A stretch of 10,766 nt of DNA. Source: Candidatus Aenigmatarchaeota archaeon. Its GTDB lineage: Archaea; Aenigmatarchaeota; Aenigmatarchaeia; Aenigmatarchaeales; JACQIB01. Positions within the stretch are counted from its first letter, which is position 1; each line of letters opens with the position of its first letter. A program made the translations under genes and the position numbers. The stretch is from the NCBI GenBank assembly GCA_043799675.1, contig JAZDNN010000035.1, forward strand, positions 1-10,766, given 5' to 3'. A model generated the notes under the pieces. It searched no databases. It was given only the letters and a program-made list of their open reading frames with translations, and had not been told where the DNA came from. Below are positions 1-10,766 of the stretch, one piece after another.

Positions 1-622
1 TTACCAGCGGCAGCCGGCTGTTTGCTATCATCTTTGTTGCCTCCGCGGTCTCCACGTTTGTCCGATAAACGGGGACCCCCAGCGATTTGTACATGCCTTC
101 CACGATATCGCCGGATTTGGAGTCGCCGCTGCCTATCACTATACGCCCTTCCTTCTCAGGTGTTATGTCAAACTTCTTGTCCCCGGACCAGGTCCCGCTT
201 ATGACAGTCAGGAACTCGGGATTGTAAACCACGCCGAAGTCCTTTCCTTCCGTCAGCCCGGCGGCGGCTATCGCCGGAGCGAATATTCCGCGTGTGGAAC
301 CCGGAGTCACGGTGGACTTTAGAACGAACACGTGCCATTTTTCTTTTCTCTTCAGAGCCTTGCCAAGTTCCTTTCCCGCCGCCGAGACGAAGGAAAGATC
401 GAACCTTCCGTCCTTCCCCAGCGGGGTCGGGACCGCGACGATTGAGACCTCGCTCGCCGCTATTGCCTCGTTGAGGTCGGTCGTGCACCTATGGCCGTTT
501 TTTCTGAGCTCAACGAGCGGTTTCTCAATCACATCGTAAAAGATGACGTCGTGACCCAGTTGCCTGAGCTGCATGCCCATCCTGCTGCCGACCTGCCCGC
601 TTCCGATTATGCTGACTTTCAT
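1..622 (-). CDS. UDP-glucose/GDP-mannose dehydrogenase family protein (N-terminal ~207 aa; runs off the left edge)
   Basis: Not in the ORF track; translated by hand from ATG at 622: MKVSIIGSGQVGSRMG (Rossmann GxGxxG), IFYD, SIVAVPTP, FVLKSTVTPGST, VYNPEFL, RIVIG, TAEATKMIAN. These are hallmark motifs of the family. The frame is open to the window edge. Confidence 0.92.
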   Translation of the reverse strand, partial: MKVSIIGSGQVGSRMGMQLRQLGHDVIFYDVIEKPLVELRKNGHRCTTDLNEAIAASEVSIVAVPTPLGKDGRFDLSFVSAAGKELGKALKRKEKWHVFVLKSTVTPGSTRGIFAPAIAAAGLTEGKDFGVVYNPEFLTVISGTWSGDKKFDITPEKEGRIVIGSGDSKSGDIVEGMYKSLGVPVYRTNVETAEATKMIANSRLPLV

Positions 623-643
623 ACTTGGCCCTTCAGTATTCAA

Positions 644-678: not shown

Positions 679-1740
679 TCAGAGCCTGACGCCCGCCTTG
701 TCAAAAAGTGGTTTGAATTCCGCCGCCCATTCGGTCTTCAGGATTTGCCTCATGTAGTTCTTTCCTCTCCTGTTGTACCACCACCAGGTGTTGTACTTGG
801 TCGCGATAGCGGAAAGCAGTTTGAATATGGGCGTGTTGAACAGCAACGGCTTCACTATCGGAATCTTCCGCAGCCTCATCTCCCAGAAGAAAATGGGCTG
901 TTTGTCCGGTTCAGGCGGCTTGAAGGGGTTCGATTCGAACTTGTCGCCGACCAGCTCTATGTCCGTTCTTGTTCCGATGCCCATGTCTTCTGCGTTCTTG
1001 ATGTGTTCTATCTTGTCGGCATCGAATCCCATGAACCTTGCCGCCGTGTAATCGGCCGCCACCCTGTCCGCGGACGCCATGATGACTCCGCAGACCTTTG
1101 TCACCCCGGTCCTCGGCGCGTTTCCTTCCATCGAGACCGTCAGATCGAGCAGGTTGAACCGTGTCTTCTTGAAATAGAAGTTGATGTCCGGTATCGCCTG
1201 GTTTGCCACGGGGTGGTACTGGTGCCTGAATCTCGGCACCATGCCCCAATGGTTCTTCAGGCAGCCGGTTATCATGGTCAGGCAGTGGGCCTTCGGAATG
1301 GGCATGTTGATTATGGTATCGATTTCCGTCAGTATCTTCGGAAGCTCCAGCTCCTTGAACACCTTCCCGCCGCAATCGACCTTTACCAACGGCTCATCGG
1401 ACAGATTGACGAACTTGATTCCGTATTTCTCGCATATCGCCCTGTGGCCCCATATCCTGCTGGCCGTATCGAGCTGTCTTGCGGCCGCAAGGTTCGCGTC
1501 GCCCATGTACAGTTCCGCATCCGGGAAGTTTTCCTTGACTTCCCTGACCATGGCTTCGATCACCCACGGCGACGTGCATTGGCCCGGGACGATCTGATCT
1601 GAAATGCCGTTTATCTTGAAGAAAATCTTCCTGCCGTGGATATACTTTTTCCAGTCCGTGAGCTCCAAAGCCCTTTTGACGGCGTCATGCACGCCTTCCT
1701 TGCTTACCTGCTTCATTTTTATGAAAGCCACTTTCGACAT
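679..1740 (-). CDS. DUF362 domain-containing protein, 353 aa, no C-terminal ferredoxin domain
   Basis: Motifs FFKIN (variant of KPN), CTSPWVIEAMV, YMGD, IINMPIPKAH-x4-TGCLKNHWG, MEGNAP and DRVAAD are typical of DUF362. Its ATG directly abuts the upstream TGA (1741-1743). Confidence 0.88.
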   Translation of the reverse strand: MSKVAFIKMKQVSKEGVHDAVKRALELTDWKKYIHGRKIFFKINGISDQIVPGQCTSPWVIEAMVREVKENFPDAELYMGDANLAAARQLDTASRIWGHRAICEKYGIKFVNLSDEPLVKVDCGGKVFKELELPKILTEIDTIINMPIPKAHCLTMITGCLKNHWGMVPRFRHQYHPVANQAIPDINFYFKKTRFNLLDLTVSMEGNAPRTGVTKVCGVIMASADRVAADYTAARFMGFDADKIEHIKNAEDMGIGTRTDIELVGDKFESNPFKPPEPDKQPIFFWEMRLRKIPIVKPLLFNTPIFKLLSAIATKYNTWWWYNRRGKNYMRQILKTEWAAEFKPLFDKAGVRL

Positions 1741-3024
1741 TCAACCACCAACATCCTCTTCGACTGCCTTGGCCGCCGCCTCGCCCTCTTCCAGCGCACT
1801 GGCAACATTCCTTACTCTGGGGAATATCTTAAATATGCCGGCAAGGTAAAGCCCTTCCCCGGCCCTGACAGGCGGATTTTGGAACCCCATGCTGTATATC
1901 GCCTCGGCATGCTCGAACCTGACGATCCTGCTCCATTCAACCGCTTCCGAAAACCCGGGCAGGAAGCTGTCGGCTTTTTTCAGGTAGAGTCTCTTCAGCT
2001 CCTCGTCGCTCATTTTCCACTGATGTTCTTTCTTGTCCAGATATCTGGCGATGTAGAAAATCTGCTTCCCTTCGGGGGCATCCTTGTACAGGGCGGTCTG
2101 ATTGAACATGACCGAGAACGGCACGTCCTTATCCAGGACGTTCGTCCAGTAGATGTCATTGAACTCCTTCCTTACTCCGAACGTGAGGCATATGCAGCTC
2201 AGGTAACGCATGTCGCGAAGTTGTTTCTCGATTGCCGGTTCACACTGAACCATCGACAGGAAGACTTCGGGTGCGACGGTCGATATTATCGCATCGGAAT
2301 CTGTCGCATGTTTCTTTCCGCCGGCCGAATACGAGACCCGTTTGATTTTTCCCAGCTCTATTTTCTCCGCCCTGGCCCCGGTTATTATTTTCACGCCCCG
2401 CCTGGGCAGCTCCTGCGCCATTTTTTCCAGTATCATCCCTTGGCCGCCGTCTATCGCACCGAACTTGGCCAGGAATGAGCTCGACTCCTTTACGAACCTC
2501 GTGCCGAACCACGGCGCGGATATGGTGGACGGCTCGGCATGGAACTTGTTCCGCATGAGCTGATCGAAGAAGATGTCGTAGTTCTTTTTTCCCGCCTTGG
2601 AAACTATCCATTCCGATGCGGTCTTTCCTGTCAGGGAGTCCCAGTCCGCCCTTTTGACATCGAACAGGGTGAACTTTGCAAGCCTGATTTTGCTGGATAT
2701 CGGCAACGGGAAGCGGAGTATGTCGATTGGGGATGAAAATCTATGTATCTTTCCGTTGTAGATGAATCCCTGCTTCACCTTCCTGAACTTAACTTCCAAT
2801 CCTAGTTCCCGTGCGAACCGTATTGTGGTCGCATCCCCTTTGAGTATGTGATGATAGGTCTTGTTGACGGAATATTTTTTCCCGTCCCAATCGACGTCCC
2901 ACTTTCCGCCCATTCCGCCGGTATCATTCTCGACCTCCAGCAAGGTGACATCATGCTTGCCGGCAAGCCTCCATGCGGCGGCCAGCCCGGCCGCACCGGC
3001 ACCGATTACCGTTATCTTTGCCAT
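1741..3024 (-). CDS. FAD-dependent oxidoreductase, protoporphyrinogen oxidase/amine oxidase/UDP-galactopyranose mutase-like fold, 427 aa
   Basis: N-terminal VIGAGAAGLAAAWRL-x6-LLE-x5-GG FAD motif, YHHI, DAIIST, C-terminal LYLAG and ALEEGEAAA. The start overlaps the GT2 stop (TAATG). Confidence 0.88.
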   Translation of the reverse strand: MAKITVIGAGAAGLAAAWRLAGKHDVTLLEVENDTGGMGGKWDVDWDGKKYSVNKTYHHILKGDATTIRFARELGLEVKFRKVKQGFIYNGKIHRFSSPIDILRFPLPISSKIRLAKFTLFDVKRADWDSLTGKTASEWIVSKAGKKNYDIFFDQLMRNKFHAEPSTISAPWFGTRFVKESSSFLAKFGAIDGGQGMILEKMAQELPRRGVKIITGARAEKIELGKIKRVSYSAGGKKHATDSDAIISTVAPEVFLSMVQCEPAIEKQLRDMRYLSCICLTFGVRKEFNDIYWTNVLDKDVPFSVMFNQTALYKDAPEGKQIFYIARYLDKKEHQWKMSDEELKRLYLKKADSFLPGFSEAVEWSRIVRFEHAEAIYSMGFQNPPVRAGEGLYLAGIFKIFPRVRNVASALEEGEAAAKAVEEDVGG

Positions 3025-3689
3025 TACCAGCGCCCCCTCATCCTTCCCCAGCGCAGGCGAAGCATCAGCCAGACTATCCTGAACGCCTCCTTTGTGCCGC
3101 GCAAGTTGAAACCAACTTTCGATTCACCGGAGATCCTTTGCCTGAAAAATATGGGTACTTCCTTCACGTTCGCCTTCGATTTGTAGAGCAGCTCCAGAAC
3201 TATTTTGTAACCCCTTGGACTGAGTTTCGTCCTTTCAATCACTTCACGTCTTGTCGCCATGAACCCGGTCATCGGGTCCCGTATGCCTGTCCACAATATC
3301 AATCTGGTGATTATGCTGAATCCCCTCGATACGAATTTCCTTGAGAACGGGTCTTCCGTCTGCCCCCCTTTCACGAATTTCGACCCTACCGCCATCTCAT
3401 GCTCTTTCAATTCGTCGACCAGCTTGAGCATGTCTTCCGGCCTGTGGCTGCCGTCACCGTCCATCAGGACAATTTCACTGCCCCTTGATTTTTCAAATCC
3501 TTCAAGGAAGGCTGTCCCGAGTCCGTTCCCTTTCTGTTTCATGAGGACGGCCCCGTGCAACGTCGGTGCAACATCGCTCTTGTCAACAACGATTATTTCA
3601 TGCTCCTGTTTTTCCATGACTCCGTTGATTCCGTTGACAAGCTGTTGTATTCCCGGCTCGTTTTTGGTCGGTATGATTATCGAAATCAT
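3024..3689 (-). CDS. GT2 glycosyltransferase, dolichol/polyprenol-phosphate mannosyltransferase (Dpm1)-like, 221 aa
   Basis: MISIIIPTKNE, EIIVVD, GLGTAF, MDGDGSH (DxD), VGSKF, DPMTGF, EVPI-x2-RQRISGESK. Start moved from the track's 3908 to ATG 3689, because the GT-A fold begins there and a TATA box lies 27 nt upstream. Confidence 0.92.
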   Translation of the reverse strand: MISIIIPTKNEPGIQQLVNGINGVMEKQEHEIIVVDKSDVAPTLHGAVLMKQKGNGLGTAFLEGFEKSRGSEIVLMDGDGSHRPEDMLKLVDELKEHEMAVGSKFVKGGQTEDPFSRKFVSRGFSIITRLILWTGIRDPMTGFMATRREVIERTKLSPRGYKIVLELLYKSKANVKEVPIFFRQRISGESKVGFNLRGTKEAFRIVWLMLRLRWGRMRGRW

Positions 3690-3710
3690 ATGAACGTTTC
3701 GGCACCAATC

Positions 3711-3716
3711 CTTAAA
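3711..3716 (-). promoter_or_regulatory. TATA box for the GT2-oxidoreductase-DUF362 operon
   Basis: Minus-strand TTTAAG starts 27 nt upstream of ATG 3689. Confidence 0.55.
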
Positions 3717-3807
3717 TGCGTTGCATTTCTCGATGCCAAAAGCATGACGGGGGGAACATGAGACCGTTACAGGGGTATGACAACGAAAACGTCTGTACGA
3801 TTCAATT

Positions 3808-3813
3808 AAAAAA
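3808..3813 (-). terminator. Oligo-T tract after the cupin stop (archaeal-type terminator)
   Basis: TGA is immediately followed by TTTTTTAATT on the minus strand. Confidence 0.45.
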
Positions 3814-4110
3814 TCACTTGTGCAGGCTGACAACGTATACGTACCGCAAAGGCGTGTTGCTGCGGTTGATGACGTTATGCGGCATGCTTTTCGGTATGTA
3901 GACCGCATGACCGCTTCCGACCGTCAGCTCTTCTTTCCTTAACATCACCGTTGCGATGCCCTCAAGCATTATCAGCACCTCTTCCTTGTCACTGGTGATA
4001 TGCTCGCCGACCTCTTGGCCGGGCTGCAGAATCACGACCGAGGATTTTATCCGTTCTGCATCTTCGGGTGTCACTTTTCCCGCCTTTCCCAGGTCTACGA
4101 TGGTTGCCAT
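3814..4110 (-). CDS. Small cupin domain protein (Cupin_2-like), 98 aa
   Basis: Motif 1 LQPGQEVGEHITSDKEEVLIMLEG and motif 2 GHAVYIPKSMPHNVIN. Start placed at ATG 4110 (MATIVDL), which avoids overlap with the upstream gene and lies 28 nt below a TTATAA box. Confidence 0.88.
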   Translation of the reverse strand: MATIVDLGKAGKVTPEDAERIKSSVVILQPGQEVGEHITSDKEEVLIMLEGIATVMLRKEELTVGSGHAVYIPKSMPHNVINRSNTPLRYVYVVSLHK

Positions 4111-4132
4111 GTTGTTTTTCCGTTCCTTTTCC

Positions 4133-4138
4133 TTATAA
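4133..4138 (-). promoter_or_regulatory. TATA box for the cupin gene, overlapping the GGR stop codon
   Basis: TTATAA starts 28 nt upstream of ATG 4110; its TAA (4133-4135) is the stop of the upstream gene. Confidence 0.55.
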
Positions 4139-5095
4139 CAGCCAGTCGCTGTCAAAACTATTCGGAAGTATATCCGGTATGGTATTGCCAAGCGCAATGA
4201 CTGTGACGGTGGCGATTCTTCCAGCCGCTATTTTCGGCATGAACATCCTCTTCAACCTGTATTCGTAGGCGGGAAAATTCGGCCAGCTGTCGAGCAGCAG
4301 CCTGGCTGCGGTAAGCCCCCAGATGATTCCTCCGCCGCTCCACGGCTTGGTGAGACCGGCCGCATCGCCGCAAAGTGTAACGTTTTTTCTTCCTGTCACC
4401 TGGACGCCTTCAGGTATCACCGCGGCCTGCACCGGCAGCCTGCTCAACCCGTTCTTTCTTGCGAACTCCCGCCAGGCTTTTCCGGTTGTCTCCTGATTAC
4501 CGAACATTCCCCACTCTACCATGTTTCCTCTCGGGATTTTCCAGAAGAAGCCGTTGTCCGTCGGCCATATGTCAGCCGACCTGCCTTTGCAATTCGTTTT
4601 CTGGAAGCATTGCAGCCCCGCGCGGAATCTCGGTTTAGTGTTTGTGAACAATCTTCTTACCGCGGAAAGCGCACCGTCGCAACCGATGACCCTGTCGAAC
4701 GTTTCTTCTTTTTTGCCTGTGCAAATCCGAACTCGCCCGCCGTTTTCCCTTACGCTTGTTACATCGTGATTGAACAGTATTTTTGCGCCAGCCGACTTTG
4801 CCTGTTTGGCAAGACGAATATCCAGTTTCTGCCTGTCCAATGCAAGCATACGGGGCCTGAACCTCACGCTGACCGTCTTACGCGGAAAATGCAGTTCAAC
4901 GACCTCAATCTCCGCTTGGACCTTCTGGGCGTCTTTTTCCACGAAATTCCATATCCGCTCACTTACCAGCCCGCTGCAGGCCTTTCCGCCGGAAGATTTT
5001 TTACGCTCAAAAACGGTCACGTCTTCACCTTTCTCCGCCAGCCTTCCGGCGAGCCAGCTCCCTACGGGACCGGCCCCGATTATAGCAACCTTCAC
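4133..5095 (-). CDS. Geranylgeranyl reductase family FAD-dependent oxidoreductase, ~320 aa
   Basis: VAIIGAGPVGS, VFERK, KACSGLVS, LDRQKLD, IGCDGALSAVRR, FFWKIP, LCGDAAG-x3-PWSGGGI. Start proposed at GTG 5095 (VKVAIIG), 27 nt below TATAAA. The 27-aa extension from 5176 is probably promoter DNA. Confidence 0.88.
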   Translation of the reverse strand: MKVAIIGAGPVGSWLAGRLAEKGEDVTVFERKKSSGGKACSGLVSERIWNFVEKDAQKVQAEIEVVELHFPRKTVSVRFRPRMLALDRQKLDIRLAKQAKSAGAKILFNHDVTSVRENGGRVRICTGKKEETFDRVIGCDGALSAVRRLFTNTKPRFRAGLQCFQKTNCKGRSADIWPTDNGFFWKIPRGNMVEWGMFGNQETTGKAWREFARKNGLSRLPVQAAVIPEGVQVTGRKNVTLCGDAAGLTKPWSGGGIIWGLTAARLLLDSWPNFPAYEYRLKRMFMPKIAAGRIATVTVIALGNTIPDILPNSFDSDWLL

Positions 5096-5178
5096 GGACG
5101 GTCTGGGCTCGGAAAGTTTATATCCGTTGGTGACTCGGTGAATTTCTTTAAAAGGTTCACTATGCATGCTAGCCAAAA
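5096..5178. promoter_or_regulatory. Divergent promoter region (GGR leftwards, secF rightwards)
   Basis: Minus-strand TATAAA at 5122-5117 and plus-strand TTTAAAA at 5147-5153 in an 83-nt intergenic gap. Confidence 0.6.
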
Positions 5179-6039
5179 GTGAGCAAGATGGAAAAAGATA
5201 TCCGGGAAAGCGGTTTCAGGATGTGGTTGCTTGTCATACCGGCAGCGTTTCTGATCGCATCTGCGGGATACCTTGTCTGGTCCTCGACGACCGGCAACTT
5301 CAAGCTGGATGTCGATCTTAGCGGCGGGACGCAGATAACGTTCGCCGTGCCTGACCAACCGGACACGGCATCGTTGGAGCGTGCATTGACCGGTTACACC
5401 CCGGCCATCCAAACCGCCCATAGCCTCTCCGGCTGGATCGTGAGCCTGAACCTGCCGATAGAGACCAATACGACGGAGGTTCTGGCAAAGCTCTCGGCCG
5501 CAGGCTGGCCTGTGCAGGAGGCGTCGGTGCAGAGCATCGGGCCTGCGCTCGGTGCCACGTTTTTCAATCAGGCGATGATTGCGATGGTGGTGGCGTTTAT
5601 TTTCATGTCCATCGCCGTGTACATGACTTTCCGCGTACCGGTCCCTTCGGCTTATGTGGTGCTGTCCGCCTTCGCCGATATAACGGAGGCATTGGCATTC
5701 AGCCAGCTGCTTGGAATCAGGCTCAGCTTGGCAACGTTCGCCGCGTTGCTGCTGCTTGTCGGCTATTCCGTGGACACGGACATCCTTCTGACGGCTAGGG
5801 TGCTGAAAGGCGAAGGAAAGCTCAAGGAACTTATCAGCCGCGCCCGTAAGACGGGATTGACGATGACAGGGACCACATCCGCCGCTTTGCTTGCCCTTTT
5901 CGCGATATCCGGAAGTGCCGTCATAACGCAGATTGCCTCGGTCCTGCTGATAGGAATGCTGTTTGACGTACTGAACACGTGGATAACCAACGCCGGGCTT
6001 CTGACACGGTACGTTGAGCGCAAGAGGTCTGCAGTATGA
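5179..6039 (+). CDS. secF: Protein translocase subunit SecF (archaeal type)
   Basis: TM1, then LDVDLSGGT, SIGPALG, five further hydrophobic segments, LLLVGYSVDTDILLTARV and TWITNAGLL. The start may be GTG 5179 or ATG 5188. Confidence 0.93.
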   Translation: MSKMEKDIRESGFRMWLLVIPAAFLIASAGYLVWSSTTGNFKLDVDLSGGTQITFAVPDQPDTASLERALTGYTPAIQTAHSLSGWIVSLNLPIETNTTEVLAKLSAAGWPVQEASVQSIGPALGATFFNQAMIAMVVAFIFMSIAVYMTFRVPVPSAYVVLSAFADITEALAFSQLLGIRLSLATFAALLLLVGYSVDTDILLTARVLKGEGKLKELISRARKTGLTMTGTTSAALLALFAISGSAVITQIASVLLIGMLFDVLNTWITNAGLLTRYVERKRSAV

Positions 6040-7748
6040 TGAACTGGAAGACCGTCCTGAAGGAATGGAAGATATTGCTTCTGCTTGTTATGGTAGCAGG
6101 CTCGTTGCTCCTGGTAGCACCGGTTTCCTCCGAAGGTGTTGTCGTGAAATCGGTCTCGGTGGACAGTCCGCTGGCGGGGAAGCTGGCCGCAGGGGAACGT
6201 TTGACATGGATGAACGAGCAGACGATAACGAAGCCCGCTGACGTCTATCAGTTTGAGAATTTCACCGGTACCCTGCGATTCATTCACGACGGCAAGCTGG
6301 ATCTTGCACAGATTACCAGACCGGGGCTTGGTTTGACCATCGAGGGCGGTTCCTCTTCAAAATTATCCTTCGGTCTTGATCTTGTCGGCGGCACGCGCGT
6401 ACTGCTAAAGCCTACAAAGAACGTGAGCTCGGCAATAATCGACCAGACCATAGCCACCCTCCAGACCCGCATAAACATCTACGGACTCAGGGAAGCGAAG
6501 TTCCAGGCCGTCAACGACGTTGAAGGGAACCGGTATGTGCAGATAGAGATGGCCGGCGCAACGCCTGCCGAGGTCGAGAACCTGCTGGCGAAGCAGGGGA
6601 CTTTCGAAGCGAAGATACCCAAGATACTTCACCTGAGCAACGGCACATCAACACTGCTTAATCGGACCGTGAGCGTGGAGGATGGAAAGCTTGTGTTGGA
6701 CGGGAAGCGTTTATCGATAAACGACACGTTCAGTCTTGGCGGGATAGAATGGGAATATACGAATTCAACCAAGGACGAAGCAACCGTGCTTGCTTCCGTG
6801 ATGTCGGGGAGCGACATCCGCTCCGTTTGCCTGATTGAACAGGCCGGGGTATGCACCTCACGGGTGCAGAAGGTCGAGGGAGGCTACGAGTTCGTGTTCC
6901 AGATAACCACCAGTGAGGAGGCCTCCCAGCACTTTGCGGATGTCACGCGCGGAATGCCCTCGATTGTCAACCCCCAGAGCGGTTCGGCCTATCTGGAGAG
7001 CCGCATATACTTCTACATCGACGGTAAGGACGTCACCGACCTTACCATCTCTTCCGACCTTGCCGGCCGCGCGCTTACCGACCCCTCAATAACCGGCTTC
7101 AGGACGACCAGGGATGAGGCGCTGAAGGAGAAGCTCGGTCTGCAGAGCATACTCCAGTCCGGCGCGTTGCCGGTTTCCCTTGACGTGATCCGCATGGACA
7201 GTGTCAGCGCCACCCTTGGAGCCGACTTCCTCAGGTCGACCGAATTGGCCGGTCTGATTGCCGCCGGGGCCGTCGCGGCCGTGATACTTTTCCGTTACAG
7301 GAGATGGAAGATAGTCGTCCCGATGGTGGCCGTCTCATTCAGCGAAGTCGTGATAATTCTGGGAGGCATATCGATAATCAATTACACCCTGGACCTTGCA
7401 GCGATAGCCGGAATAATTGCGACGCTCGGGACCTCGGTGGACGCGCAGATAATGGTGATAGACGAGCTCATTGCCAAGGAACGTATGTACACGTTCAAAC
7501 AGCGGCTGAAACGCGCGTTCTTCATGATATTCGGCAGCGCCGGAACGGTAGTTGCCGCCATGCTGCCTCTTGCAATCATCGGCATCGGCGTCATGCGCGG
7601 CTTCGCGATAGTGACCATGATGGGCGTGTTCATCGGCATCTTAGTCACGCGGCCGGCCTTCGCGCGCATAGCCGAAGTGATAATTGAGCGCGAGGAACGG
7701 AAGGCGCAGACCAAGCCTCCGGAACCGGCCCCGCCCGTGACTGCGTGA
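6036..7748 (+). CDS. secD: Protein translocase subunit SecD (archaeal type) with an N-terminal PDZ-like insert
   Basis: FGLDLVGGT, LQTRINIYGL, LQSGALP, VSATLG, IAGIIATLGTSVDAQIMVIDE, MRGFAIVT and ILVTRPAF. ATGA overlap with the secF stop, with a GAGGT Shine-Dalgarno-like motif upstream. Confidence 0.94.
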   Translation: MMNWKTVLKEWKILLLLVMVAGSLLLVAPVSSEGVVVKSVSVDSPLAGKLAAGERLTWMNEQTITKPADVYQFENFTGTLRFIHDGKLDLAQITRPGLGLTIEGGSSSKLSFGLDLVGGTRVLLKPTKNVSSAIIDQTIATLQTRINIYGLREAKFQAVNDVEGNRYVQIEMAGATPAEVENLLAKQGTFEAKIPKILHLSNGTSTLLNRTVSVEDGKLVLDGKRLSINDTFSLGGIEWEYTNSTKDEATVLASVMSGSDIRSVCLIEQAGVCTSRVQKVEGGYEFVFQITTSEEASQHFADVTRGMPSIVNPQSGSAYLESRIYFYIDGKDVTDLTISSDLAGRALTDPSITGFRTTRDEALKEKLGLQSILQSGALPVSLDVIRMDSVSATLGADFLRSTELAGLIAAGAVAAVILFRYRRWKIVVPMVAVSFSEVVIILGGISIINYTLDLAAIAGIIATLGTSVDAQIMVIDELIAKERMYTFKQRLKRAFFMIFGSAGTVVAAMLPLAIIGIGVMRGFAIVTMMGVFIGILVTRPAFARIAEVIIEREERKAQTKPPEPAPPVTA

Positions 7749-7793: not shown

Positions 7794-9011
7794 ATGTTTG
7801 AACTGCTGCTCGGGCTGGCATTTGGAATAGCGCTCGGTGTGTTCGCCGGGCTGCTTCCGGGACTGCACCCCAACACCCTCATCCCGTTGCTTGTCGGGGC
7901 GGCCGCCTACTTCGACCCGCTCACCGCCGCGGTCATCCTGGTGGCCACCGGAATCACCAACAGCTTTGTCGCGTTCATCCCGGCCATCCTGCTCGGCGCG
8001 CCCGAGGACTCCGAAGCCATGAGTGCGTTGCCTGGCCACCGCATGCTGCTGGCCGGCCGCGGCTATGAAGCGATAAAGCTCACCATAATCGGCGGGCTTG
8101 GCTCCGTTCTGCTCTGCCTCGCCCTGCTGCCGGTTCTCTGGTTCGGCTTTCCCGCCGTCTATTCCGCCACCCGCCCGTTCCTGCATTGGCTGCTTGCAGC
8201 TCTGGTGGCATACATGCTGCTGAGCGAACCCGTGTGGAAGAAGGCGGGCTGGGCATCGTTGACTTTCTTTTTGGCGGGAATCCTTGGCATTATTGCGCTC
8301 GACGGTTTCGGCGACTGGACCCTGTTCCCGATGCTGACCGGCCTGTTCGGCCTGCCGATGCTCCTGCTCAGCCTGAAACACAGGATAAAGCTTCCCGAAC
8401 ATTTCAGCTACGAGTCCGACCCCATGCCCGCAAGATCAAGGCTCGGCGGAATTGCCGCCGGTTCCGCGGCCGGGATTCTGGTCGGCCTGCTTCCGGGAAT
8501 AGGTTCGGCACAGGCCACCGTGCTTGCACAGGAAGCGGTCGGTCGCTCGAAGGATACCGGAACATCGGACAGGACTTTCCTGACTGCGGCCGGCGGTGTA
8601 AACGCTGCGGATTCGATTTACGGTCTGCTCGCCTTGTGGCTCGTGGGAAATCCTCGGAGCGGCATCTCCGTTGCAATCAGTCAGATGGCCGGAATGACTT
8701 CGGATTCGCTGCTGGTGATAATACCGGCACTTGTTGCGGCCGCGGGCATTGCGGCCTACATAACACTGAAGCTCGCGAGGACGGCTGTCCCATTATTGCG
8801 CCGCATCGATTACCGCCGCCTGAACATCCTGGTGGCCGGCATGCTGGTCGTCCTTGTCGCGTTCTTCAGCGGCTCGCTCGGTCTTGTGATACTGACCGTT
8901 TCAACGGCAATAGGTCTGATTCCGAACCTCACCGGCATCAGAAGGAGCCACGCGATGGGTTGTCTGCTGCTGCCCACGATTTTGTTCTTTGCGGGGCTCA
9001 CGCTGTTCTGA
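7794..9011 (+). CDS. TctA-family (DUF112) tripartite tricarboxylate transporter permease-like membrane protein, archaeal type
   Basis: Very hydrophobic 405 aa. Repeated family signature FAGLLPGLHPN / LVGLLPGIGSAQA, plus FIPAILLGAP, LPGHRMLLAGRGYEA, GNPRSG and RRSHAMG. Confidence 0.88.
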   Translation: MFELLLGLAFGIALGVFAGLLPGLHPNTLIPLLVGAAAYFDPLTAAVILVATGITNSFVAFIPAILLGAPEDSEAMSALPGHRMLLAGRGYEAIKLTIIGGLGSVLLCLALLPVLWFGFPAVYSATRPFLHWLLAALVAYMLLSEPVWKKAGWASLTFFLAGILGIIALDGFGDWTLFPMLTGLFGLPMLLLSLKHRIKLPEHFSYESDPMPARSRLGGIAAGSAAGILVGLLPGIGSAQATVLAQEAVGRSKDTGTSDRTFLTAAGGVNAADSIYGLLALWLVGNPRSGISVAISQMAGMTSDSLLVIIPALVAAAGIAAYITLKLARTAVPLLRRIDYRRLNILVAGMLVVLVAFFSGSLGLVILTVSTAIGLIPNLTGIRRSHAMGCLLLPTILFFAGLTLF

Positions 9012-9037: not shown

Positions 9038-10171
9038 CTAGGGTGCTATCGGAAGGCCGAAGCCAGAGTACTTGTCGTCACCTGCGCCGTCAAGGTCGTG
9101 GTTCTTCGCGAGATTGTCGAGGTAGGTCCTTGTATCGCTTGCACTTCCCTGCCACAGCTTTGCAGCCAGACCTGCGACGTGCGGTGTTGCCATCGAGGTG
9201 CCGCTCATGGTGTAGTAGCAGCCGTCCTTGTACGTGGATTGTACGCTTACGCCAGGTGCCGCCATCTCCACCTCTCCCGCTTCCTTGACGTAGTCACCGT
9301 CATTGGTTCCTACTGCAGACCACGAAGGAATCGCCTCGTTGCTATCTATGGCCCCTATGGACATCGGATAGGCATACGCGGCCGGATACGTCACCGCTCC
9401 TGGTCCCGAGTTGCCTGCCGCCACCACTACGAGAATTCCTTTGCTTTGCGCGTAGTTGACCGCGTTCTCCATGATGGTGCTTCCGCTGGTGCCGCCTATG
9501 CTTATGCTTATCACCTTGGCCCCGTTGTCGGCCGCATAGATGATGCCCTCGGCCAGGTCGTCCCAGTAGCAACCCGCCGGCTTGCAGACCTTGATTATCA
9601 TCAGGTTCGCGTCCGGTGCCACTCCGAGGATTTTCCCGTTGGCGGCGATTGTTCCGGCCACGTGCGTTCCGTGCCCGTCTGTGTCAGAACAGCCGTCCGC
9701 GATTTTCCTGCCCGTGGTGTCCTTGCACAGAACGATGTTGTTCTTCAGGTCCGGGTGTGTTGTCGCTGCGCCTGAGTCAAGCACGGCCACCTTGACCGGT
9801 GAGCCGTTGTACTTGCCACCGGAGCCGCCGTTGACCTTGGTTATTCCCCATGGTGTCTTTGCGGTCGGGTTGCATACTACCGGCGGTGGCTTTGCCTTTC
9901 CTTGGTCCTTGCCCTCCTTGTCCGGGTCCAGCAGCTGGCCCATCCCGACCTCTTCGACCTTCACTCCCTTCTTCTCGAGCTCCTTGATTTCCTTCTTGGT
10001 GAGCTCGGCCGTGAAGGTGTCACCGAAATCGTGGATGACATCGTAGCTGTCTTTCAGGTTCTTGTCGGTTATAGCTACCCTTTTGGTTTGTGAGTCGTCC
10101 GCCAGCACGGGCATTGTAAAAATCAAAGTCATGCCCAGAACCAGCAGCGACCCTAGAATTAACTTGCTCAT
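9038..10171 (-). CDS. Secreted S8 subtilisin-family serine protease (signal peptide, propeptide, catalytic domain)
   Basis: Catalytic motifs VAVLDSG (Asp), DGHGTHVAGTI (His), AAGNSG (oxyanion Asn) and SGTSMATPHVAG (Ser). N-terminal Sec-type signal MSKLILGSLLVLGMTLIFTMPVLA. Confidence 0.96.
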   Translation of the reverse strand: MSKLILGSLLVLGMTLIFTMPVLADDSQTKRVAITDKNLKDSYDVIHDFGDTFTAELTKKEIKELEKKGVKVEEVGMGQLLDPDKEGKDQGKAKPPPVVCNPTAKTPWGITKVNGGSGGKYNGSPVKVAVLDSGAATTHPDLKNNIVLCKDTTGRKIADGCSDTDGHGTHVAGTIAANGKILGVAPDANLMIIKVCKPAGCYWDDLAEGIIYAADNGAKVISISIGGTSGSTIMENAVNYAQSKGILVVVAAGNSGPGAVTYPAAYAYPMSIGAIDSNEAIPSWSAVGTNDGDYVKEAGEVEMAAPGVSVQSTYKDGCYYTMSGTSMATPHVAGLAAKLWQGSASDTRTYLDNLAKNHDLDGAGDDKYSGFGLPIAP

Positions 10172-10194: not shown

Positions 10195-10200
10195 CTTAAA
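10195..10200 (-). promoter_or_regulatory. TATA box for the protease gene, overlapping the polB stop codon
   Basis: Minus-strand TTTAAG starts 29 nt upstream of ATG 10171; the TAA at 10198-10196 is the polB stop. Confidence 0.55.
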
Positions 10201-10766
10201 TATTTGATTGCGCCTTCACTATCTTTCCCAAACTCCCGCCCTGCTGGAAGTAAAGCTGCCCGCCGCACTTCGGGCACACGCCTGAAAGGGAAGGCCTGTA
10301 GAAGGACCAGTTGCACTTCCCGCAGCTGATTGAATCGAAACCTGTGAGGACGGTGCTTTCTGGAGATACCGTTTTTCCGCTCGGACTGACAGCAATGCTT
10401 ACAGCACCGAGTTTCATCTGCTTGCTGCCTTCGAGCAGCTCGGTCTTGCTTATCCCGAGCGCCTCGAATATTCGTTCCAGCGGGGGAAGCAACTGGTTCT
10501 CGATGTAATAGGTGCTGTCTATCTCGAGGCCGTTTGCCTTCACGTAATCCGGGTCCTCGGCCCGCTTGCTGAGCATCGCATTGCCCTTTACTATCACGTA
10601 ACCGAGCCTTTCCCCGACCGCGCTCCCCCTCATCGGGTCCCTCGCCTTCAGTTTCTTTGCAAGCTCCACGTGCGGCTGCATTCCCTCGTAACTTTCCAGC
10701 GCCCTCGTCACTCCCTTCACCACGGTGAGCTTGTCCAGCGGTATCCTTCCGGCCGTCAGGTCCTTC
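10196..10766 (-). CDS. polB: Family B DNA polymerase, C-terminal fragment (thumb, PIP-like motif, C4 zinc finger); 5' part lies outside the window
   Basis: Frame is open to the right edge (KDLTAGRIPLDKLTVVKG...). Thumb motifs PHVELAKKL, RDP, GERLGYVIVKG, RAEDP and IDSTYYIENQLLPPLERIFEALG. Confidence 0.93.
   Translation of the reverse strand, partial: KDLTAGRIPLDKLTVVKGVTRALESYEGMQPHVELAKKLKARDPMRGSAVGERLGYVIVKGNAMLSKRAEDPDYVKANGLEIDSTYYIENQLLPPLERIFEALGISKTELLEGSKQMKLGAVSIAVSPSGKTVSPESTVLTGFDSISCGKCNWSFYRPSLSGVCPKCGGQLYFQQGGSLGKIVKAQSNI

Follow-up and report, generated by a model that had tools for sequence, protein, structure and literature searches.

The window analysed here is a whole contig (C7) of 10,766 bases from the genome of a Candidatus Aenigmatarchaeota archaeon (748,753 bases in 45 contigs, 83% complete), and its last 570 bases (10196-10765, minus strand) encode the C-terminal part of a family B DNA polymerase (PolB), with 189 residues and a stop codon in a frame that runs off the contig. 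We consider it highly probable (about 85%) that this part is the C-terminal domain (CTD) belonging to a polymerase of the B6-aenigma1 group, that the Cys4 finger it carries docks a catalytically dead, shortened relative of the DP1 subunit of DNA polymerase D (PolD), here called mini-DP1, and that the two proteins stand in for a lost PolD. The system is already known, and the window contributes one more orthologue of a published pair that is nearly universal in the phylum. Here we describe the recovered gene, the origin of its finger and its upstream partner, together with the predicted docking of the two and their distribution, and compare them with related polymerases.

The remainder of the polymerase gene, whose recovery had been proposed in the preliminary description of this DNA, was found on a second contig of the same genome (C33). 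The end of the window (10626-10766) is identical to C33 1-141 in an exact overlap of 141 bases lying inside the PolB gene, and the minus strand of C33 encodes the first 752 PolB residues. Because this piece and the 189-residue piece in the window overlap by 47 residues, the full protein has a length of about 894 aa. Both pieces align collinearly with a single protein of 901 aa found in another sample (81% identity for the C33 piece, across 750 residues without a gap, and 85% for the window piece), and the orthologous open frames of relatives (883-930 aa) agree with the join. The two contig ends evidently represent an assembly break within one gene. The 752-aa piece matches the exonuclease (PF03104, E 1.2e-31) and polymerase (PF00136, E 1.4e-94) families, and its translation contains DIET, SLYPS, KKRY and YGDTDS, which we take to be the PolB exonuclease and polymerase motifs. 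Many of the orthologous PolBs are 1300-1840 aa in length and contain intein domains (PF14890 and PF14528), of which the window's copy has none.

The Pfam family DNA_pol_B stops at residue 102 of the window frame, and the remaining 87 residues have no Pfam match. The alignment to the PolB of Pyrococcus abyssi stops at residue 121, where KQMKLGA in the window pairs with KQVGLGA at the end of that enzyme. An extension of some 70 aa after the thumb, containing CGKC-NWSFYRPSLSGV-CPKC, had been claimed from a first reading of the sequence; past the end of an ordinary archaeal PolB it measures about 68 aa, and the motif (residues 148-167 of the window frame) lies exactly where it had been placed, at window 10265-10324 on the minus strand. 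In the AlphaFold2 (AF2) model of the tail, confidence is confined to the finger and the two strands that follow it (predicted local distance difference test (pLDDT) 76-89; strands at tail residues 68-73 and 76-78), while the linker is disordered, and the model contains strands only, with no helix of four or more residues and no helical bundle. The two strands are predicted to form part of the docking surface. The preliminary description had likened the extension to the eukaryotic C-terminal Cys modules CysA and CysB; the relationship of the module holds, but not the layout, since the tail has a single Cys4 motif where CysA and CysB would make two, and the helical bundle is missing. In the linker, the stretch KQMKLGAV, with an invariant Q and a nearly invariant L in 30 orthologues, resembles a degenerate PCNA-interacting protein (PIP) box. 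PCNA is encoded in the source genome, and the linker may bind it through this motif.

Conservation of the tail was assessed in 30 orthologous loci, and the same 30 rows make up the tail profile. The 189 residues of the window are matched in 39 of 41 genomes (40 relatives and the source genome), the best match mostly spanning nearly the whole query. All four Cys residues of the finger are invariant (30/30 tails), and further positions are invariant or nearly so, including the W after the first CxxC, the RRP loop, L-x-G, the CP of the second CxxC, a later F and two Gly (tail F71 being invariant, G75 and G78 nearly invariant). Because the four Cys and the W, RRP, L-G, CP and F positions are conserved in orthologues, we judge CGKC-x12-CPKC to be no chance motif.

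Several profile comparisons connect this finger with DP2, the large subunit of PolD. Four NCBIfam models of DP2 match residues 145-181 (E 9e-4 to 0.015), the DP2 model TIGR00354 matches the finger spot of the tail, and in 3 of the 42 genomes of the order the DP2-model matches at E<=1e-5 consist solely of the PolB tail. Searched against all PDB sequences, the 30-tail profile retrieves the Zn-III finger of DP2 (6knb_B 1129-1165, E 5.7e-7; 6hms_B, E 1.7e-6; 6t8h_B, E 1.8e-6), followed at a distance of four orders of magnitude by the next match (0.015), and the aligned strings share C-x-K-C and (F/Y)RRPPL-x-GKCP-x-CG. In the family that keeps PolD, the tail profile lands on the DP2 finger itself in all five genomes checked. 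A Foldseek search with the tail model bears out the relationship in its ranking, with P. abyssi DP2 on top (root-mean-square deviation 0.7-0.8 Å over 31 columns, 45% identity), if not in its significance, E being only 0.011-0.015; the finger loop FYRPSLSG corresponds to the KxRRxP loop of DP2. Together these matches point to a finger that is homologous to, and derived from, DP2 Zn-III, and its metal is presumably zinc. Passages in two papers (PMC7544198, PMC6355029) equate Zn-III with the eukaryotic CysB/Zn-2 module, and the kinship with polymerase C-terminal Zn modules first suggested for this DNA is supported by the tail profile, which matches Zn-III specifically. In PolB tails at three loci of two other families (f17 and f22), C-x-C (CDCGG and CECGG) takes the place of CxxC in the finger's second half.

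The core of the tail-bearing polymerase is most similar to eukaryotic Pol delta. The top score of the 752-aa piece in the PDB is with human Pol delta (303.6 bits), followed by Thermococcales PolB3 (at most 280), Pol alpha (∼236) and E. coli Pol II (136), and the thumb alone likewise scores 72.9 bits with human Pol delta versus 62.3 with the best archaeal PolB, in keeping with the Pol-delta-like thumb and eukaryote-like PolB claimed at the outset. A second PolB of the genome (contig C9 1471-3891, minus strand, 806 aa) gives 477 bits with Thermococcales PolB3 and 115-125 with Pol delta; by this measure it is a plain PolB3, and the tail-bearing core is the more Pol-delta-like of the two. The C9 protein ends right after the thumb, where aligned PolB3 chains continue for about 20 residues, and the usual C-terminal PIP stretch may be missing from it. 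It is extremely improbable that the window encodes an ordinary archaeal PolB3 that acquired an unrelated generic zinc ribbon: Thermococcales PolB3 does score near Pol delta (280 versus 304 bits), but the genome has a clear PolB3 as a separate gene (477 bits), nesting of the core within PolB3 is not what the similarity scores show, and the finger, with its Cys residues invariant in orthologues, matches DP2 Zn-III specifically.

The partner gene lies directly upstream of PolB (C33 2261-3112, minus strand) and encodes 284 aa counted from its ATG. At the junction, GTGTGA, the TGA stop of the partner overlaps the GTG start of PolB, and the two genes are probably translationally coupled. PF04042, the DP1/B-subunit family, has no match in the source genome or in any of the 42 genomes of the order, and matches 35 of the 301 genomes in a sample of the phylum. 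Several of its weak matches are 360-440-aa proteins encoded directly upstream of PolBs that are 40-44% identical to that of the window. A search profile was built from the divergent DP1-like proteins of other families of the phylum, with canonical DP1 added in a second version. Run over the 5946 stop-to-stop open reading frames (ORFs) of the genome, it recovers one ORF (C33 2261-3127, minus strand) at E 2.5e-16 in the first version and 2.5e-18 in the second, the next best being at 0.86 or worse with the first profile and 0.13 or worse with the combined one. The reading that the PF04042 searches would suggest, of no DP1 at all, was rejected, the lineage profile having found the upstream gene.

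The partner protein matches no Pfam family even at E<=10. A profile of 30 partner orthologues searched against the PDB matches DP1 chains (E 2.8e-22 to 1.3e-20), the match being strong in the OB (oligonucleotide-binding) fold and weak both in the helical domain at the N-terminus and in the final part of the phosphodiesterase (PDE) domain. All 47 PDB chains matched by its AF2 model (pLDDT 92.8) in Foldseek at E<=0.001 are DP1 or the B-subunits of Pol epsilon, delta, alpha or zeta, with a TM-score (normalized to the query) of up to ∼0.6. The protein keeps the N-terminal helices and OB fold of DP1, and is mostly 276-331 aa in the order (241-365 aa as extracted). The PDE domain was aligned among the canonical DP1 of the PolD-keeping family, the mid-sized forms of other families and the forms of the order, using motif names that we take to be those of the calcineurin-like phosphoesterase family. 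Where canonical DP1 has PDE motifs I-III, the order's proteins show gaps; they also lack motif V (GH-x-H), and only a rump of the domain is left. Judging from these motifs, the partner cannot be a nuclease, the catalytic half of its PDE domain having evidently been lost in the order.

Docking of the two proteins was predicted by co-folding mini-DP1 with the 87-residue tail, each with a 30-row alignment, alongside three controls. The pair scores 0.76 (0.77, 0.75 and 0.76 in the separate runs) versus 0.00 for the best of the three controls, and among solved complexes 116 of 157 reach the mark applied to such co-folds, as do 2 of 215 mismatched pairs. The partner has a pLDDT of 67-69 in the co-fold, and the runs share at least 65% of contacts. 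On the tail side, confident contacts come from the R-P-S-L-S-G of the finger loop, the CP in the second CxxC, L-Y-F and, as the final strand, G-K-I-V-K-A, with tail residues 69-71 and 78-83 in the predicted interface; on the partner side they involve the helix that precedes the OB fold and the invariant E125-D126 and T128-G129. The conserved non-Cys positions of the tail are the residues of the predicted interface. In PolD, as described by Raia et al. (2019, PMC6355029) in the passages on this contact, DP1 accommodates the Zn-III KxRRxP loop in its acidic OB/PDE groove, and a Zn-III peptide of 20 aa has nanomolar affinity for DP1. The modelled geometry is that described for PolD Zn-III and DP1. 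The suggestion that the zinc finger might recruit a partner of the DP1/B-subunit type is strengthened both by the gene directly upstream and by a co-fold that passes its controls.

Two other roles for the finger need to be weighed at this point. It could be mainly a structural or DNA-contacting zinc ribbon that holds the nascent duplex, as in clamp-1 of PolD, where Zn-III takes part, and not bind a DP1-like protein. Weak matches to generic zinc ribbons (the adenylate kinase lid, HypA and RpoP/Rpb12) would accord with this, but they rank below DP2, the predicted interface with the DP1-like protein is where the conserved non-Cys residues fall, the tail and the DP1-like gene co-occur and are mostly adjacent, and DP1 binding in the same phylum is backed by yeast two-hybrid data in the published passages on it (PMC12680538). 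We regard this role as unlikely as the main one, and contact with DNA and binding of DP1 are not mutually exclusive. Alternatively, the main partner of the tail could be another replisome protein, either the primase subunit PriL or PCNA, with the DP1-like protein acting independently. Passages of the same paper report that the DP2 CTD of Heimdallarchaeia binds primase and cite others for such binding in T. kodakarensis, and the linker has its PIP-like motif in a genome that encodes PCNA. However, that motif precedes the finger and is not within it, mini-DP1 passes the co-fold controls, and in the same source the PolB CTD of Baldrarchaeia showed no interaction with primase and DP1 binding is reported for Aenigmatarchaeota, which makes such a partner very improbable.

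Docking of mini-DP1 by the finger is the reading that also fits the distribution of the genes. Mini-DP1 is found in 38 of the 42 genomes of the order, and in the 35 genomes in which both genes were located it lies upstream of PolB on the same strand in 30 (within ∼600 nt in 25, and at 0.8-2.7 kb in 5), these gaps being approximate, with PolB starts estimated from open-frame lengths. Searches for DP2 with TIGR00354 match only the tail in the source genome, and none of the 42 genomes of the order has a DP2 above the cut-off. In the 301-genome sample, the tail profile matches 276 genomes, the DP1-like profile 280 and DP2 14, the last comprising 12/12 genomes of one family and 2/58 of another. Five genomes of the DP2-keeping family were checked, and PolB was found there only as a 773-783-aa protein (30-33% identical) or a fragment, with no tail-bearing copy. 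At seven loci, belonging to four other families, a one-finger PolB of 891-914 aa has a DP1-like gene of 368-436 aa directly upstream, and at an eighth locus DP1 lies beside DP2. In the family with 2/58, the two genomes (G119, contig C64; G186, contig C78) have DP2 fragments on short contigs, adjoining DP1 in G119, and these could be due to retention, transfer or binning contamination. Organism names are attached to 10 of the 120 homologues listed, with Aenigmatarchaeota/Aenigmarchaeota in 8 cases, Nanoarchaeota in 1 and Micrarchaeota in 1, and they place the genome in Aenigmatarchaeota. Polymerases of this kind had been expected to be rare rather than unprecedented: they are indeed published (Kazlauskas et al. 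2020), but within the phylum they are the rule, not rare (276/301).

Several observations weigh against this reading. The co-fold may pass through its likeness to the DP1/DP2-CTD complex and gives no proof that this copy binds, because that complex is already solved. The bundle of helices through which PolD and the eukaryotic enzymes contact the PDE domain is missing from the tail, and the window's finger reads Y-R-P where its orthologues ((F/Y)RRP) and DP2 have R-R-P, one canonical Arg being missing. Foldseek with the tail alone finds nothing at E<=0.001, generic zinc ribbons following below DP2, and the passages on the Aenigmatarchaeota CTD in PMC12680538 describe it as shorter and 'degenerate', with 'a different predicted structure'. 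The likeness of the core to Pol delta is a similarity ranking only, and the join of the two contigs has the 141-base identity and the collinear homologues as its basis. The genome is 83% complete, and the absence of DP2 therefore rests on the 42 genomes of the order. Mini-DP1 and PolB are on opposite strands in 4 of the 35 genomes and on different contigs in 1.

In the proposed mechanism, a polymerase of about 894 aa, with a Pol-delta-like core and apparently intact exonuclease and polymerase motifs, carries a tail in which a flexible linker, containing a degenerate PIP-like motif, is followed by one Cys4 finger of DP2 Zn-III origin and two short strands. The finger loop and the strands after it would dock in the groove of the 284-aa inactive DP1-like B-subunit encoded directly upstream, which has the N-terminal helices and OB fold of DP1 and a PDE rump. 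PolB and mini-DP1 would thus form a two-subunit, eukaryote-style polymerase in place of the lost PolD, and may act as the main replicase. It is possible, though rather doubtful, that this is the smallest natural docking module of a polymerase and its B-subunit, with a bare finger plus two strands and a DP1 with a PDE rump of ∼100 aa reduced together and kept as an adaptor; the published passages (PMC7544198, PMC12680538) use 'inactive' for the DP1 and 'degenerate' for the CTD and do not describe such co-reduction. If mini-DP1 and the tail bind, selection would appear to keep the OB groove plus the adaptor domain at the N-terminus, which may link to another part of the replisome, and not the nuclease fold.

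The combination of PolB, a DP2-derived finger and a dead DP1 would be an archaeal counterpart of the eukaryotic replicative layout, and bears on the origin of Pol alpha, delta and epsilon. The origin argument has been in print for this phylum since 2020, and interaction data since 2025. For annotation, a practical consequence is that pipelines will report such genomes as lacking DP1, because across most of the phylum the partner escapes Pfam (PF04042 in 35/301 genomes, versus 280/301 with the lineage profile).

The features of the PolB tail and the other genes of the window are listed in the table. Next to PolB, on the same strand and beginning 25 bases downstream of its stop, lies a gene (9038-10171, minus strand) that was weighed as a possible partner; its product is a subtilase (Peptidase_S8, E 1.6e-52), for which reason it was rejected, and it is probably unrelated to replication.

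Table. Features of the window, with the PolB tail first and the remaining genes after it (residues are those of the window frame unless stated otherwise).
Feature	Position	Strand	Basis or remark
PolB polymerase domain end (thumb), residues 1-102	10460..10765	-	Pfam PF00136 at residues 2-102, E 1.3e-19; best PDB match human Pol delta 870-980, 72.9 bits
Flexible linker from thumb to finger, residues 103-147	10325..10459	-	No Pfam match; AF2 pLDDT <50 at tail residues 1-4, 7-12 and 15-29
PIP-box-like KQMKLGAV, residues 115-122, internal, aromatic pair replaced	10400..10423	-	Aligns with P. abyssi PolB C-terminal KQVGLGA
Cys4 zinc finger (presumed metal) CGKC-x12-CPKC, residues 148-167, DP2 Zn-III homologue	10265..10324	-	Conservation, profile and Foldseek
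Conserved C-terminal strands GGQLYF...GSLGKIVKA...	10199..10264	-	Conservation, AF2 strands and predicted interface
PolB stop codon	10196-10198	-	Translation
UDP-glucose/GDP-mannose dehydrogenase, N-terminal part	2-643	-	
DUF362	679-1740	-	
Amine-oxidase-like flavoprotein	1741-3024	-	
Family-2 glycosyltransferase	3024-3908	-	
FAD-dependent oxidoreductase	4133-5176	-	
SecD/SecF C-terminal domain ORFs, overlapping	5179-6039 and 6036-7748	+	Longer ORF also with SecD-specific domains
TctA-family transporter	7794-9011		After the SecD/SecF ORFs

The closest known system is the B6-aenigma1 polymerase. Kazlauskas et al. (2020, NAR, PMC7544198), in the passages concerned, define the PolB group B6 of Aenigmarchaeota within a 'Delta-like' clade, note that most Aenigmarchaeota are without DP2 and describe a group of inactive DP1 proteins, and one contig in their Table S4 carries a DP1 of 336 aa (3687-4719) and a B6 PolB of 887 aa (4779-7476). 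As far as these passages describe it, B6-aenigma1 shares with the window's PolB the phylum, the length (887 versus ∼894 aa), a single Cys4 motif most like DP2 zfIII, the absence of DP2 and a short DP1 directly upstream. There is no essential difference between the two, and the window's PolB is an orthologue. Details beyond that account, again by comparison with its passages on the group, are a DP1 in the order without PDE motifs I-III and V and invisible to PF04042, the overlap of stop and start codons and the counts over 301 genomes. A full-text literature search found no further relevant paper beyond those cited here.

A related arrangement is present in Baldrarchaeia. According to the passages on it in a 2025 paper (Nat Ecol Evol, PMC12680538), an interaction of DP1 with PolB-DP2CTD proteins of Baldrarchaeia and Aenigmatarchaeota, and not with canonical PolBs, is reported from AlphaFold3 and yeast two-hybrid, and the sequences earlier termed 'B6-aenigma2' are Baldrarchaeial contamination. 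Both lineages, as presented there, have a PolB fused to a DP2-derived CTD, lack DP2 and keep DP1. The Baldrarchaeial CTD is described as longer, resembling the CTDs of DP2 and eukaryotes, whereas that of the window is of the short, degenerate type.

The DP2 CTD/DP1 complexes of PolD (6hms, 6t8h and 6knb) are alike in the Cys4 finger, the RRP-type loop and an OB-fold partner with an acidic E-D groove, and the same docking elements are predicted for the window's pair. The differences are that the body in the window's system is a family B polymerase and not the two-barrel DP2, that the helical bundle is absent and that the nuclease site of the partner is lost. The PolB3 enzymes of Thermococcales (Pfu, Tgo and KOD) share the domain order, and their C-terminal stretch aligns with the PIP-like stretch of the window, but PolB3 ends there, without a finger or B-subunit, while the window's PolB continues for its extra ∼68 aa.

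Eukaryotic Pol alpha, delta, epsilon and zeta combine a PolB bearing a C-terminal metal finger with an inactive B-subunit of the DP1 type, as is predicted for the window's pair, the core of the window's enzyme being nearest Pol delta, and the mini-DP1 fold matches eukaryotic p50, p59, p70 and Pol31. In contrast to the eukaryotic CTDs, that of the window has a single Cys4 motif instead of CysA+CysB and no helical bundle, its B-subunit is ∼150 aa shorter, and its finger presumably holds zinc, whereas CysB of Pol delta and Pol zeta binds an Fe-S cluster in the account given in PMC7544198.

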